Numbered from the stretch's first letter, positions 44,616 to 59,775 are shown. The stretch: 64,000 nt of DNA from a bacterium (GCA_963674965.2 CAXXFL010000006.1:704001-768000); one strand, 5' to 3'. The notes: generated from the sequence alone by a model not told the origin. Numbers and translations are program-made.

Positions 44616-47600
44616 TTAATATTCTAACATCAATGAGTTTATTGCGTTTGGATCCGCTTCATTCATTCTTTTCCAATTTTGTAATTCTCTATTCAATTCA
44701 CTTACATTGTCAAGTTTATAATTAGAGATATAGTTGGTATTATAACGATTTCCTTCCAATGTGTATGCAGCATCGGGATGAACCCTCTTGCCATTAAGTG
44801 CATTCACTTTATTTCCGGCGGCATCAAATTGACGCTTGTTTTTATTAATGTTCGTAGCTCCTTTCGATTCTGCCCAGTTTAATTCATTTTCGATCGCATT
44901 ATTATGTTTTACGTTGCCAGGACCATGTTCTTTGCCCCATTTTGTGCCACTTACAGAGGATTTATCCGCCGCTTTTACCGCGTCATCGCCAACTTCCTCC
45001 GCGGCCTCCAATACGGCCTTGCCCGCGCCCTCGGCCGCGTCGTCGGCCGACCCTTTTAATAATCCTTTTACTCCGTTTATTGATCCCTTGACTCCATTAT
45101 AAAACCCTCGAGGGTTTTTTGCGATCTTATAGCCGGTGGCGGTAAAACTTAAGCCGGCGCAAACGTCCCCTGGGATATTGACGACGTCCCAAGCATCTCG
45201 TATTCCATTGTAAGCGTCATCAGCCGCTGCTTCAGAAGGAATCGCTCCAACTCCATCCAGACCTCCTACTATAGCGAGAGGAACTCCAACTCCAATACCG
45301 CCGGCGGCGTAAATTATCAAAGCCGCCATTGCCATAGGATCGCGACCATCGCCGTCCTGATAGACGAATGGATTATTATTCGCGTATGCGTATTGATTGA
45401 GATCCTGGAAAACCGGATCGGTGCTCACGAACCGCCCCAGGTCCGGGTCGTACCAGCGGGCGCCGAGTTGGTAGAGGCCGACGTCGTTGTCGGAGCGGCG
45501 GCCGACGAAGCCGTGGGTGATGGAGGAGTTGGCGATGGTGAGGGGGTGGGAGGGCGAGCCGGAGAAGTCGGCGCCGAAGGGGAGATAGGCGCGGCGCCAG
45601 ACGGTCTCGCCGTCGGAGTTGGTGGCGACCACCGGGGAGTGGAGCCCGTAATGGAGGTAGAGCCGCTGGGAGATATTGACCGAGGCGGCGCCCGAGTCGA
45701 GGAGGCTCGAGCCCGAGTCGTCAACCACGTCAATGTCGTATGAGCCGGAGCCGGCGTCGTCCCCGAGGTCGCCCGTGTCTATAAAAATATAAGTCGCGCC
45801 CTCGGACACGGCCACCTCGATGGCGTAAACCGCGCCCGACCCATTATCGAACCGCACCGTGTACGTCCCCGCGTCCAGCGCCCCCGCCACGGACAGCTTG
45901 AGAGTGTCGCCCTCCTCGAGCTCGTCGGACCAGGTATCGCCGTCGCCGAGGGTCAGCTCGCCGATGGCGCTCTCGGCCAGGAGCCGTAGCCGCGCCGCGT
46001 CCAGCTCGGGCGTCGCCGAGTCGCCCTCCCCCGGCCCGCAAAGCTGGGTCGCTCCGTCCATGACGGAGGTCACGCCGTCGCACAGCCCGTCGCCGTCGGT
46101 GTCCGGATTGAATGGGTTGGTATAGAAATACCCCGAGTTCAGGTATTCCTCGAGATTGGTCCTCCCGTCCCCGTCGGGGTCATCGGCCGCGTCGTCCACC
46201 AGCGGGTCCAGCCCGGCGATGACCTCCCAATAATCGTCGATCCCGTCCCCATCCGAGTCGGCCAACAGCGGGTTGGTCCCCAGCCTCGCCTCGATAATGG
46301 CCGCCATCCCGTCCCCGTCATAATCCGCCACCGCCGTATCGCACTCCACCACCACCGGATCGAACCCAAGGCTATCCGCGTACTCCACCTCCCACCCGTC
46401 CGTGAAGCCGTCAAAGTCGGAATCAATGGAGACGGGGTTGGCTTGGGATTGGCAGTAGGCATAATTCAACGGTTCGCTAACAGTAACGTCTGGATCGCAC
46501 TCATCAACGTTCACGATACCGTCAGAATCCGTATCGACCGTTCCTCCATCAGCGTCGGATATTGGGTTAAGGCCGTGTTCATACTCCCACTTGTCAGGCA
46601 TGTCGTCCAAGTCGCTGTCGCCCGTATATGGGCAGGAATCCAGAACGTAATATTCCATGCCGTCGGGGAGACCGTCGTCGTCGCTGTCAGATAAGGTTGG
46701 AATTACAATAATGCCCTCATACATTTGAGCGTCAACTTCTTCCGAATCGAGCATGTAATCCTCATCAGTGTCGGGATTGTATGGAGACGAGAGAAAAACA
46801 ATTATTTCAGTTTGATTGGAAATTCCGTCGCCATCGGGGTCATCGTTATTGTCCACCACCAATGGATCAGTCCCGTATTCCACCTCAATTCCGTCTCGTA
46901 AGCCATCGCCGTCAGTGTCGGGATTTTCCAGTCCATTTGGAATAGTGCCCATCTGATATTCAGTAAGGTTCCATAAGCCGTCGCCATCGGCGTCGGAGTC
47001 CCAGTCCGTGGAGTCGTCCGGGTCAAAACTATATTGGACCTCCCACCAGTCAGGCATGCCGTCCATGTCGGAGTCGACCATGTCTGGCCTTGTGTTATAT
47101 ATATCGTGTTCGTCAATATTGCATAACCCGTCCTGGTCGAGGTCCGGACAACCGGCGCCGCCGGCGCCGTCGGCGGCATTATTGGGGTCGAGTCCGAATA
47201 ATGCCTCGTAGTCGTCATCCATGCCGTCGCCGTCGGTGTCGGCCAAGCTCAGTGAGGACCCCGCGTACATTTCCTCGATTACCATGAGGGTGGAGCCGAA
47301 TAATTCGCCCACGTCCAATTTCGAGTAGAACACGTAATAATTATCCGACGGGTCCTTTTCCACCCAGGCCACGTGCAGGTATTCCTTGTCGGGGCTGGGC
47401 TTGATCCTGGCCAGGACGGCGTCGTTAGCGGGGTTGGATATAAGTATGGGAGGTCTCCAGTGGGTCGAGTTGGTAGGCGCGTCCTTATAATAATCGTTCC
47501 TTACCATTTCGTTCGAGTAAAGGATTACCGATTTGGTCTGGCCCGAGCCCACGGGCGTCTCGACCACGGACTTCCATACCGCGTGTTTCCTCTCCCCGCT

Positions 47601-58200: not shown

Positions 58201-59775
58201 CATGGCGCTGAATACGTCTCGACGTGAGCCATAGTTTTTATCCGTTTCGACCCTGGTTGAGAGAGAGTACCACAAGTCTAACGGCGGAGTGCGCTCCCAT
58301 GGTCCGTCTTCATCCTCGTTCCACATCCATGGAGTTTCTCCATGATCGACTTGAGGATTATAATCGATGGCGGTATAGGAGTAAAATATATCCGTGCCCC
58401 ATGGGGTAATGATATGGCTAATGTAGTCTCCCGGACAGGTTAACGTGTAGTAAAATGGTTTTTCGGCTTGACGCGCGCAATTAACCCTTTCCGGGTCCGC
58501 GCCAGGGTCGATATCGCACGTGCAAAGTCCCGTGTCTCCTATTCCCAGGAAAGTATGCGACTCAAAATGCCAAAAGTCGGTGACGTCTTGGGAGTCGAGG
58601 GCGTCGGAAAGATCGTCTAATTCAATGGGCGCGGTATTGCCGGTTATTATGAAGGAATCCACCAGTTGATAGTCATTGGGGCCATAGAATTCACATGTAT
58701 AACCGTTCGTAACGTGTGAACGATAAAACTCCTCGGGAACTTCATGGTAATGGTAGTGCCGGCTGTATAAATATTCCTCGCCACGCCGAACGTCAAGTCT
58801 TTCAAGCTTCCCAGCGGGACGATCCGTCCTATATCTCGAATCGGCCGCGCTCCAGTCGGCGATCTGCGTCGTCATGTCCGAGTAAATGAAATCGACCGTG
58901 TAGACGCCCGTTTTTCCCGTCATAGTCACTTTTACAGGCTTTCCCCAATGACCATAGGTGCTTACTGAATTCGAATACTCTATCGTCACATGAGAACCGT
59001 TGGGGTAATCGACCTCGGTCAAAGCCAGATCGCGGCCTGAATAATTGTATCCCCAATGAAAAGAGTCCCATGTATTCTCATATGTCTTCCGAGTGCCGTC
59101 GGGAAGGAAAAGCGTGGCCTCCACGTGGCGAAATGGGCCTTCTTCTTCTATGCCTTTTGCAAGCGCCTCGAGCCTCCAGTTATTGTCGGAAAAATATAAT
59201 TCATGCCTGGCGTACATGTCAGGAAATGGGTACGGATCCGCCGAATTGTATACCTCCCAGTAATTGCCCCTCCAGGAACATCCAGTGCCAACGCAAGAAC
59301 TGAAATAGTGAATTTCACCGTCCTGGGTATATAAATACGCCTGAAACAATAAATCGTTCGTTTGGTCAATGAAGTCTACTCCGGTATACACGAATACGAT
59401 ATGTTCATTAAGAACGTCCCACGCCAAGCCATATGGAGATGGAGAGTGTTTGCTGGTGTAATTCAAATACAGCTCCAAGCCGACGCGGTCCTGAAAAGCC
59501 AAATAGTCCGACCTTCTGAATATGGAAAACCCGTACCCTCCATCCGACCCGACGGTAACGTCGGCCATAACGAAAATCGGGACGGCCGTCAGGGTGTCTA
59601 TGTATTCAAAACCGGATGGACTGTAATAATTTCGATAGGGAGAAATATAATTCAGTTGTAACTCCGCGGCGTCCGGCTTCATGGTCCCAGCCCCCATGGC
59701 CGTTACGCTCGGAATAAACAGTAACGCCAGCGCCGCCGTCAAGATAACCTTTACATTTACACGCTTCAATTTCAT
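55258..59775 (-). CDS. secreted YD/Rhs-repeat shell protein lacking the Rhs core and toxin
   Basis: Sec-type signal; many YD repeats (YDNFGRL, YDAKGNV, YDDADRV, YDSLNRL); ends at LYVYANGQMVAQF; GGAGG RBS. Confidence 0.88.
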   Translation of the reverse strand: MKLKRVNVKVILTAALALLFIPSVTAMGAGTMKPDAAELQLNYISPYRNYYSPSGFEYIDTLTAVPIFVMADVTVGSDGGYGFSIFRRSDYLAFQDRVGLELYLNYTSKHSPSPYGLAWDVLNEHIVFVYTGVDFIDQTNDLLFQAYLYTQDGEIHYFSSCVGTGCSWRGNYWEVYNSADPYPFPDMYARHELYFSDNNWRLEALAKGIEEEGPFRHVEATLFLPDGTRKTYENTWDSFHWGYNYSGRDLALTEVDYPNGSHVTIEYSNSVSTYGHWGKPVKVTMTGKTGVYTVDFIYSDMTTQIADWSAADSRYRTDRPAGKLERLDVRRGEEYLYSRHYHYHEVPEEFYRSHVTNGYTCEFYGPNDYQLVDSFIITGNTAPIELDDLSDALDSQDVTDFWHFESHTFLGIGDTGLCTCDIDPGADPERVNCARQAEKPFYYTLTCPGDYISHIITPWGTDIFYSYTAIDYNPQVDHGETPWMWNEDEDGPWERTPPLDLWYSLSTRVETDKNYGSRRDVFSAMTKVESGDQAGTLQTTIEIDKFIGPHMYRCFGQYDPSGGTDISSHFYSLKKEYYYYDTSSITENGTVWRLYLPKALHLSGVRDDESSFSLGDVEYGWTGLPSPFLLGLRKFGGVTFQPFYTPYNRYENGISQTFIDPIPTVPAISSVEMTRDGLTYLMEASDFNMYNSPGKVESSMGGYARTSEYAFDHEAQVNGDTYMIGVTTNVDTSLNGGSGNVGAYRTNMTNGLLEASVVDMSALSLEYDDGGNVTNAAGDGGVQNTYTNYIMGRPQNVSLYNGALTGTMEYNGLGQATKVEVPNAGGSLLTYNYVYDNFGRLTSIDRPGSLWDTEISYLGGTSTTDGPDGGNDLNLYYVTNKRKSVTGNRESVEYLDGWGRVWKTETLYEGATYIKSVLKRDVCGVPRLSWSPLTTDFTDEQFVETSATASALDAFGRPAFSTDQTGGSEKFGRYVTYDYGSVGSGLEVEITVGCKGESDFCTAAAYTTTYKETYQGPSPGELYMTKRVGPIVDGSTATPREFQYTYGSKGELLSISEESSAGIGDREFKYDAKGNVIGTYSPESGRRRFTRDNRGRITKIRASDNSVVNMEYDDADRVTRILAVGPAQPDYHFYYDQGSGSLTGEDGNWAVEGVSYDTDYYYNALAPLLDKVSVAYGFPTSSGYSTAGFDIKYVYNGYGEVTWIDYDGEMSISLTRDNLGRVTSISKQGADDIMESIEYQPDGSLKRLTYGNDVVTDIFQFYGLGVITEISIRTKAEAVNRDNIKTDIVTIGGGGYASYWYERYGHYNGNDYCFDNYLNPLKAKIGPYGVNNKFQISATYDEEQRLSEAQYFPGSTLSSPFLRVTYDFDRRGNRTSKNLTWDPGSSESYSYNYDSLNRLSSVTGTEGPTIGDYVHDSRGNVIQTPTHKYGFDLFDRLVDADDGKVKIFYTAGGAKFLKVTEEEVTAYFYDPGGSMLCEKTFRHSDFRLISRKLYVYANGQMVAQF

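Follow-up and report, generated by a model that had tools for sequence, protein, structure and literature searches.

Separate proteins for the shell and the core of an Rhs-type toxin system, and a proposed assembly in trans

In a 64,000-nt stretch of bacterial DNA (GCA_963674965.2 CAXXFL010000006.1:704001-768000), which we call the window and within which positions are counted, an Rhs-type toxin system is divided between two proteins. The YD-repeat shell is encoded by one gene, and the Rhs core with its toxin lies at the far end of a giant lipoprotein encoded by another. This separation of shell and core is confirmed in full; it is well supported that the break falls exactly at the shell/core boundary and that the two proteins are two halves of one Rhs-type system. 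The DNA comes from an environmental bacterium, uncultured and belonging to a lineage that has been little sampled. We propose that the core, carried on a lipid-anchored TSP3 stalk, closes an open cocoon that has been exported, so that the toxin would be caged, cleaved and delivered on contact. We give this reading a probability of about 0.6.

The break between shell and core

The locus spans 44616-59775 on the minus strand and holds three co-oriented genes, called as open reading frames (ORFs) and translated: the YD shell, a HEAT lipoprotein and the giant lipoprotein. Their coding features are as follows.

55258..59775, minus: core-less YD-repeat shell gene (1505 aa); ORF, translation, RHS_repeat and TIGR01643 matches, AlphaFold2 (AF2) model and Foldseek search
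55261..55680, minus: end of the shell gene, 140 codons for residues 1366-1505, the part most conserved across the three paralogues; identity, dN/dS, and co-fold contacts at 1500-1505
54407..55225, minus: HEAT-repeat lipoprotein gene, about 272 aa from MKKTT; HEAT_2 match at 4.6e-9, lipobox STGC by eye
44616..54383, minus: giant gene, a 3255-aa lipoprotein with TSP3 repeats, Rhs core and toxin; ORF, translation, profile and motif matches
48594..51671, minus: TSP3 block 1 of the giant, residues ~905-1930, 30 DxDxD[GN]xx[DN] motifs; TSP3_bac and partial CglD/MtsD matches
45984..47246, minus: TSP3 block 2, residues ~2380-2800, 12 motifs; TSP3 profiles and motif count
45666..45896, minus: small pre-core domain, residues ~2830-2906, also found in orphan cassettes and in the outside relative P0211; alignment, no Pfam family match
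45345..45665, minus: Rhs core, residues 2907-3013, with the first hairpin followed by TIGR03696 at 2933-3013, ending PFVYQDGDG
44619..45344, minus: variable tail, residues 3014-3255 (242 residues), a Gly/Ala-rich hydrophobic stretch and then a putative toxin domain

The gene structure agrees with what the sequence-only reading had described. The 1505-residue YD protein comes to a clean end, its C-terminus ...RKLYVYANGQMVAQF being followed by a TAA stop and its final shell strand reading ...YVYANGQMVAQF. Each gene appears to have its own ribosome-binding site and export signal: Shine-Dalgarno-like sequences lie upstream of all three starts, and by eye the YD protein has an N-terminal signal peptide, the giant a lipobox (IVGC) and the HEAT protein another. 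The ORF with HEAT repeats between the YD and giant genes extends over 54407-55348(-), and if it starts at MKKTT (55225), a position taken from its paralogues, the intergenic gaps are 32 and 23 nt, in keeping with the short gaps claimed. Readthrough or frameshifting that would fuse the YD and giant genes is ruled out, because the whole HEAT gene intervenes.

Profile searches of both proteins, which the sequence-only reading had suggested, divide cleanly. RHS_repeat (28.4 bits) and TIGR01643 (31.5 bits) match the 1505-aa protein only, and TIGR03696 (Rhs_assc_core) matches the giant only, at residues 2933-3013 with 63.1 bits against a cut-off of 32.5. With the Pfam and TIGR profiles no YD repeat was found in the giant at E<=0.01, its matches besides the core all being to TSP3, so that a core near the end of a separate 3255-aa lipoprotein without YD repeats is indeed what the DNA encodes. 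BLASTP and MAFFT alignments show the YD protein to be colinear with canonical Rhs proteins up to its own C-terminus, where its final ...LYVYANGQMVAQF corresponds to the canonical '...YIYxGxxPLA...' strand, the last shell strand before the core. Beyond that strand canonical proteins read 'YYYHxDHLGS...YxPFGE...ARYYDPxxGRF...DPxGL', and the giant carries exactly this continuation from residue 2907 (2907-2937 ends ...YLPFG).

Within the giant, motif counts leave the N-terminal 900 residues and the stretch ~1935-2375 without an assigned domain, and the Asp content of TSP3 block 1 is 17-27%. It is well supported that the core-toxin forms the tip of a lipid-anchored protein that carries TSP3 (calcium-binding-type) repeats. 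Both conserved core Asp positions are present. Across 21 aligned cores D95 is found in at least 90% and D116 and G119 are invariant, and the Asp of ..TDP.. is conserved together with the Asp and Gly of ..QDGDG... The tail behind the core has no Pfam match, and a search of its sequence against the PDB returned one meaningless match (E 0.7).

Searched by sequence against PDB chains, the YD protein gave nothing at E<=1; its likeness to known cocoons was seen at the level of fold. AF2 modelling of residues 306-1505 from 25 sequences gave a beta-hairpin shell at 763-1505, in which block pLDDT is mostly 50-93 with two short dips; the remainder is unmodelled and the overall mean is 53.9. The top Foldseek matches of this shell are all Rhs, teneurin or TcB-TcC cocoons (E ~1e-25). 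A model of residues 28-900 reached a mean pLDDT of 48 and was left out of the fold search.

The same arrangement occurs three times in the genome, in the window, at C2:63.5-80.1 kb and at C6:881-897 kb, with identities between copies of 49-75% for the YD protein, 70-98% for the HEAT protein and 64-77% for the giant. The split is kept at all three loci, as is the HEAT gene between the other two, and the C-terminal 15 residues of the YD protein are identical in all three copies. Chance is excluded because the arrangement recurs in diverged form, and an assembly artefact is ruled out by the three diverged copies and by relatives outside the genome. Only one of the YD genes is broken; the other two and the three giants are intact ORFs of 1505-3300 codons. 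For the YD gene dS is mostly above 1 or saturated between copies and dN far lower, with dN/dS well under 1. Conservation among paralogues is highest in the shell's last 140 residues, 0.81-0.97 identical against 0.35-0.99 elsewhere. Between copies A and C, residues 1366-1436 have dN 0.08 and dS 1.45, and residues 1437-1505 have dN 0.04 and dS 0.44. It is well supported that the split is old and maintained by selection rather than a recent accident. A further TSP3 protein, P0126 (2767 aa), was considered as a second giant and rejected, having no core.

Relatives beyond this genome are few. A word-based search at similar lengths found, besides the genome's own copies, canonical Rhs proteins only, at no more than 25% identity, and a HMMER scan of 1.84 billion representatives with shell residues 1150-1505 returned six proteins at E<1e-30, one of them the query itself. 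Three of these, from other sources and 35-37% identical, end exactly at the query's last residue (...VAQY or ...VAQF): P0239 with ...YVYANGRLVAQY, P0240 with ...YIYANGQVVAQF and P0241 with ...YIWVNGRIVAQF. Their stops are real, because the contigs are 5.5, 39.5 and 36.1 kb long. Fused relatives are P0242 and P0217 (E<1e-30) and, more weakly, P0252 (E 1.6e-11), in which the same last shell strand is followed by a linker of ~10 residues, then the core (...NQYAYAxNNPFxYxDxxG) and a toxin. The homologues are not all single fused Rhs proteins, a prospect that the sequence-only reading had raised against itself: three of six relatives end at the same residue and three are fused. As the core of the fused relatives belongs to the giant's core clade, minus its first hairpin, and both split and fused states exist, the shell clade and the core clade are evolutionarily linked.

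The first core hairpin (YYxHxDxLGS...YxPFG) is present in every split or tethered core that we saw, and absent from P0242, P0217 and P0252. It may be a docking strand needed only in trans.

Other relatives bear on the giant's half. P0211, from another source (763 aa, cut by its contig), is 44-53% identical and combines TSP3 repeats with the giant's pre-core domain and core. P0226, from JGI (723 aa), is a single chain in which ~250 residues are inserted exactly between last shell strand and core; hydrophobic segments are found in this insert together with TSP3 repeats and a dockerin-like repeat, and the protein could represent a step between fused and split forms. In P0229 (553 aa) and P0235 (745 aa) the core is preceded by only 2-3 YD repeats.

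Close relatives of P0001 (the YD protein), P0241, P0239 and P0243 were not found in the species-representative genome collection. In a set of 40 related genomes, only 12 of them related up to class level, P0001 had no match at E<=1e-10; tblastn of the shell C-terminus against plasmids found none; and the giant's N-terminal domain, taken from the three paralogues, was not found in JGI metagenome contigs, where just two patterns were searched. A JGI scan with a profile of the shell C-terminus gave 43 loci, with no P0001-clade member among them. By eye, 35 continue into a canonical core, L032 stops two residues past the match, L031 and L016 go on without a core, and five lie mid-shell or run off the contig. 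L031 (ORF 6707-15283; 2858 aa) is a core-less shell of another kind, its YD shell running into ~1650 residues of PKD/HYR-like repeats, judged by eye, with no terminal Rhs core. A sequencing-run lookup listed no RNA run, and the DNA runs all come from one study.

Splits of a simpler design exist elsewhere. A core-profile scan of one genome per species gave 71 loci (25 fused, 14 cut at a contig end, 32 short), and five of the 71, L050, L051, L054, L056 and L057, are two-gene splits, all in gammaproteobacterial metagenome-assembled genomes. In each, a protein of 1335-3292 aa that has no core is directly followed by one of 292-376 aa. The four large proteins scanned (all but that of L056) have RHS repeats and C-terminal PKD/HYR/Ig/PQQ domains, and two of the four have DUF6531. 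The small protein comprises a signal peptide, a full core from the first hairpin onwards, and a toxin (Ntox47, for example), and L051 carries a tandem pair of these small genes. These loci resemble ours in having a core-less shell followed by a separately exported core-toxin with the first hairpin kept, and differ in the extra C-terminal domains of the shell, the small size of the core-toxin and the lack of a HEAT gene and a giant. Separation of shell and plug-toxin therefore recurs. We found no literature on gammaproteobacterial two-gene split Rhs loci. In L054 TSP3-like motifs, seen by eye, come next after the terminal strand of the shell. The shell/core junction is where TSP3 repeats collect, in the giant, in P0226 (in cis) and in L054 (by eye).

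The proposed assembly in trans and its alternatives

The sequence-only reading had proposed that the shell assembles in trans around the toxin, with the core completing the barrel by strand addition, and had suggested a co-fold. We co-folded shell residues 642-1505 with giant residues 2895-3030 (core docking, without the tail) in three runs with three controls. The score was 0.80 in all three runs against 0.00 for the best control, a mark reached by 58 of 80 solved complexes and by 2 of 110 mismatched pairs; the runs agree in at least 79% of contacts, with a partner pLDDT of at least 69. In the model, a confident interface joins shell 1042-1505 with giant 2907-3007 and places the core in the C-terminal mouth of the shell. 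Predicted contacts pair shell 1500-1505 with giant 2907-2914 (the RLYLHY strand), and A1503 facing L2908/Y2909 would amount to strand addition at the break. The predicted contacts at the break thus came out as proposed, although they come from a model that may recall solved cocoons. In the wider claim, the two halves of one Rhs-type system, the exact and selected break and the lipid-anchored TSP3 tip all stand; assembly in trans is supported rather than demonstrated.

We infer how the proteins are exported, how they dock in the cell and come to be displayed at the surface, how the toxin is encapsulated and cleaved, and what the HEAT protein does, as follows. Gene 1 would supply a Sec-exported YD cocoon without a C-terminal plug. 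Gene 3 would supply the lipid-anchored TSP3 giant, the last 350 residues of which are the core (putative plug and aspartyl autoprotease) and then the variable toxin. Once both are exported, pairing would take place between the core's first hairpin and the last strand of the shell, ...YVYANGQMVAQF, and the core would spiral into the open C-terminal mouth, so that the tail of ~240 residues ends up inside. Self-cleavage after PFVYQDGDG would leave the toxin free but caged on the tip of the cell-surface stalk until a target is met. The downstream immunity genes would protect the producer, orphan cassettes, sharing ~290 residues of homology, may swap the toxin by recombination with the shell gene untouched, and the HEAT lipoprotein probably assists assembly.

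Several points weigh against such an assembly. It leaves unexplained by what route a toxin that terminates an exported protein of 3000 residues would enter a separately folded cocoon. The co-fold pass may reflect likeness or memory rather than binding, because single-chain Rhs, Tc and teneurin cocoons have been solved. The alignments were self-built, that of the core chain holding nine near-identical rows from this genome only, with little diversity, and the shell itself is confidently modelled in part only. The predicted cleavage motif, PFVYQDGDGR, departs from the usual PxxxxDPxGL, the mark of the cleavage site in Rhs proteins according to PMC8765631. The fused relatives are not simple concatenations of the two halves, because the first core hairpin is missing from them, and the existence of the mini-proteins P0229 and P0235 suggests that the core may work without a full shell. 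At locus B (C2) the YD gene is broken by an IS110 element at C2:65518-66534 (L005:2519-3535), with the HEAT and giant genes intact.

The chief rival builds on some of these points. It holds that the core alone is a self-cleaving release module on the giant and that the YD protein is a separate accessory (adhesin, receptor-binding protein or empty shell of other function, for instance) that is co-transcribed by chance, so that no cocoon surrounds the toxin; we consider it unlikely, though a serious competitor. The two mini-proteins and the many short core-toxin ORFs speak for it, as do an intact giant beside an insertion-sequence (IS)-broken YD gene at locus B and YD shells that run into PKD/HYR domains without a core, such as L031. 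Against it are the findings that the shell ends exactly where the core would begin in three paralogues and three outside relatives, that the same shell clade is found fused to the same core clade, and that the strongest constraint on the shell lies in its last 140 residues. Nor is the core known to fold alone, because solved Rhs cores spiral into and seal the cocoon (PMC8765631), and the co-fold model puts this core in that canonical position. The broken YD gene of locus B could, to judge from its sequence, be replaced by the other two copies, which have the same C-terminus.

A Tc-like arrangement, in which the giant is an A-like adhesin or translocator joined to a C part, the YD protein a docking B-like cocoon, and the toxin is pushed through the giant, seems to us very improbable. 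TcB and TcC do form one cocoon from two polypeptides (PMC8765631 and 10.1101/590430), and TcdB2-TccC3 structures are among the Foldseek matches. Yet Pfam shows no SpvB, TcdB-middle or TcA-type domain in either protein, TSP3 repeats make up most of the giant, which gives no hint of a pore-forming channel, and the immunity genes and orphan arrays indicate interbacterial competition. The least probable reading is a decaying remnant, an ancestral single-chain Rhs protein broken by rearrangement in an IS-rich region into pieces that do not work. IS110 transposases, an rve-type integrase and a recombinase do lie in or beside the arrays, and one YD gene is interrupted by an IS. Decay sits poorly with three intact giants and two intact YD genes of three, with dN/dS far below 1 at saturated dS, with a ribosome-binding site and an export signal for each gene, and with relatives at 35-37% identity from three other sources that end at the same residue.

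We therefore keep to the proposal of an open cocoon closed by the stalk-borne core. A broader version is more tentative, and we hold it at somewhat less than even odds: Rhs cocoons may in general be closed and loaded in trans, an open YD shell being joined by a separate plug-toxin module, either a small secreted protein (as in the five gammaproteobacterial loci) or the tip of a TSP3 stalk, that would dock by strand addition, cage its own toxin and cleave itself.

Toxin cassettes, immunity genes and neighbouring features

The locus is a polymorphic toxin system. TIGR03696 has 32 matches in the genome, and 17 of the 32 are of the TSP3 type, namely the three main copies (the giants) and 14 orphan ORFs. 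These 17 share the giant's pre-core domain and core almost letter for letter and all diverge right after DxxG. Downstream of the giant the window holds five orphan cassettes, and a small ORF comes after each. Three small ORFs score above the Pfam cut-off (Imm11, DUF4304, SUFU), a fourth matches Imm11 weakly and two match nothing; Imm11, DUF4304 and SUFU are families that we take to be linked to polymorphic-toxin immunity. The array reads, from the giant outwards:

44156..44593, minus: candidate immunity gene for the main toxin (145 aa), judged from position alone; without a family match
42607..44025, minus: orphan cassette 1, with pre-core, core and a different tail; TIGR03696 67.5 bits
41933..42598, minus: candidate immunity gene, weak Imm11; E 0.0011, below cut-off
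40138..41799, minus: orphan cassette 2, with TSP3 repeat, core and tail; TIGR03696 67 bits
39295..39909, minus: candidate immunity gene, DUF4304; 1.3e-18
37718..38872, plus: IS110-family transposase inside the cassette array; Transposase_20 and DEDD_Tnp_IS110
35768..37516, minus: orphan cassette 3; core match and alignment
35132..35755, minus: candidate immunity gene, Imm11; 7.4e-5, 22.6 bits
33300..35024, minus: orphan cassette 4; core match and alignment
32737..33303, minus: candidate immunity gene, SUFU family; 1e-14
30857..32614, minus: orphan cassette 5; tail with a weak PT-TG pre-toxin match, 1.3e-4, just below cut-off
30119..30856, minus: candidate immunity gene, 245 aa, no family; by position
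29182..29904, minus: truncated cassette at the array edge, pre-core TSP3 part only; TSP3_bac

The tail of orphan cassette 2 has a weak restriction-endonuclease-like match (MTES_1575, E 0.0013, below cut-off), and three other cassette tails gave nothing on Pfam. An rve-type integrase and a serine-recombinase-like ORF border the array at 27031-29194 (+), and the same element, its identity judged by identical ORF starts, lies beside the C2 array at 59.5-61.1 kb.

The genome holds other Rhs proteins. A third Rhs core family occurs in arrays at C2:9-17.7 kb and C4:369-382 kb, in proteins of 233-804 aa with few RHS repeats that read 'YVHGPGVDD...LTDGLGS' before the core, and a canonical Rhs protein of 2907 aa is encoded at C6:849629-858349. 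Just upstream of the YD gene lies a 1659-aa protein with InhA-like MAM and choice-of-anchor J domains (60987-64000 (-), continuing to C6:769966), which is probably unrelated because it is absent at the other two YD-HEAT-giant loci.

Known systems and what a split Rhs would mean

In all characterised Rhs proteins, according to PMC8765631, the conserved C-terminal region spirals into the cocoon and seals it, and in every Rhs, Tc and teneurin structure covered there the plug is in the same chain as the terminal YD repeats. The usual picture that follows is of a toxin enclosed as one chain folds. A literature search, with subscription journals outside its scope, found no described shell/core split except TcB/TcC.

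We compared our locus with the canonical single-chain Rhs proteins RhsA of Pseudomonas protegens (7q97), that of Photorhabdus laumondii (7pq5), Tse15 (8uxt) and that of Salmonella bongori (8qjd). Shared with them are the YD cocoon fold, a TIGR03696 core with the conserved Asp, a variable toxin, downstream immunity genes and orphan cassettes. Unlike in these proteins, shell and core-toxin are encoded by different genes and each has an export signal of its own, the core comes after TSP3 rather than YD repeats, Pfam finds no PAAR, VgrG or DUF6531 domain, and the motif is PxxxxDGxGR instead of the PxxxxDPxGL given in PMC8765631.

TcB-TcC (4o9x, 4igl, 6h6e), which is among the fold matches, is the one two-polypeptide Rhs-type cocoon around an autoproteolytically released toxin that PMC8765631 describes. 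Its break lies mid-shell, TcC having many Rhs repeats as well as the core, whereas here the whole shell is on one protein and the core alone on the other. With no RHS_repeat or TIGR01643 match in the giant, only the core is predicted to join the shell, unlike in Tc BC. By Pfam, SpvB, TcdB-middle, beta-propeller and TcA-type domains were found neither in the two proteins nor in the six neighbouring ORFs scanned, and the window has no beta-propeller/TcA docking module and no TcA gene.

Bacterial teneurin-like proteins (TLPs; 9ifo; PMC13018210) and metazoan teneurins are likewise secreted or surface YD shells with a large N-terminal region, and 9ifo_A ranks seventh among the Foldseek matches of our shell. 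A TLP holds its plug and toxin in cis on one chain, in contrast to the two chains here. FN-plug and NHL domains were not recognised ahead of our shell, where the model is poor (mean pLDDT 48). The giant, for its part, resembles the Myxococcus TSP3 lipoproteins CglD (NF033765) and MtsD (NF047639) in its lipoprotein signal and long TSP3 arrays. Its scores are below both cut-offs, 311 bits against 400 for NF033765 and 129.7 bits against 800 for NF047639, and unlike the giant the CglD and MtsD models have no Rhs core or toxin.

The locus ties Rhs toxins to giant TSP3 proteins of the cell surface, and the two are also found together in cis in P0226 and, by eye, in L054. If the proposed assembly is true, encapsulation would not need the co-translational folding of one chain. 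The container would be closed and filled after export, and the mechanism of loading could be tested with two purified parts. The shell gene would also be uncoupled from the diversification of the toxin, such that one shell would serve many swappable cassettes and several loci. Such a system would, in addition, be a natural design for protein containers loaded in trans.

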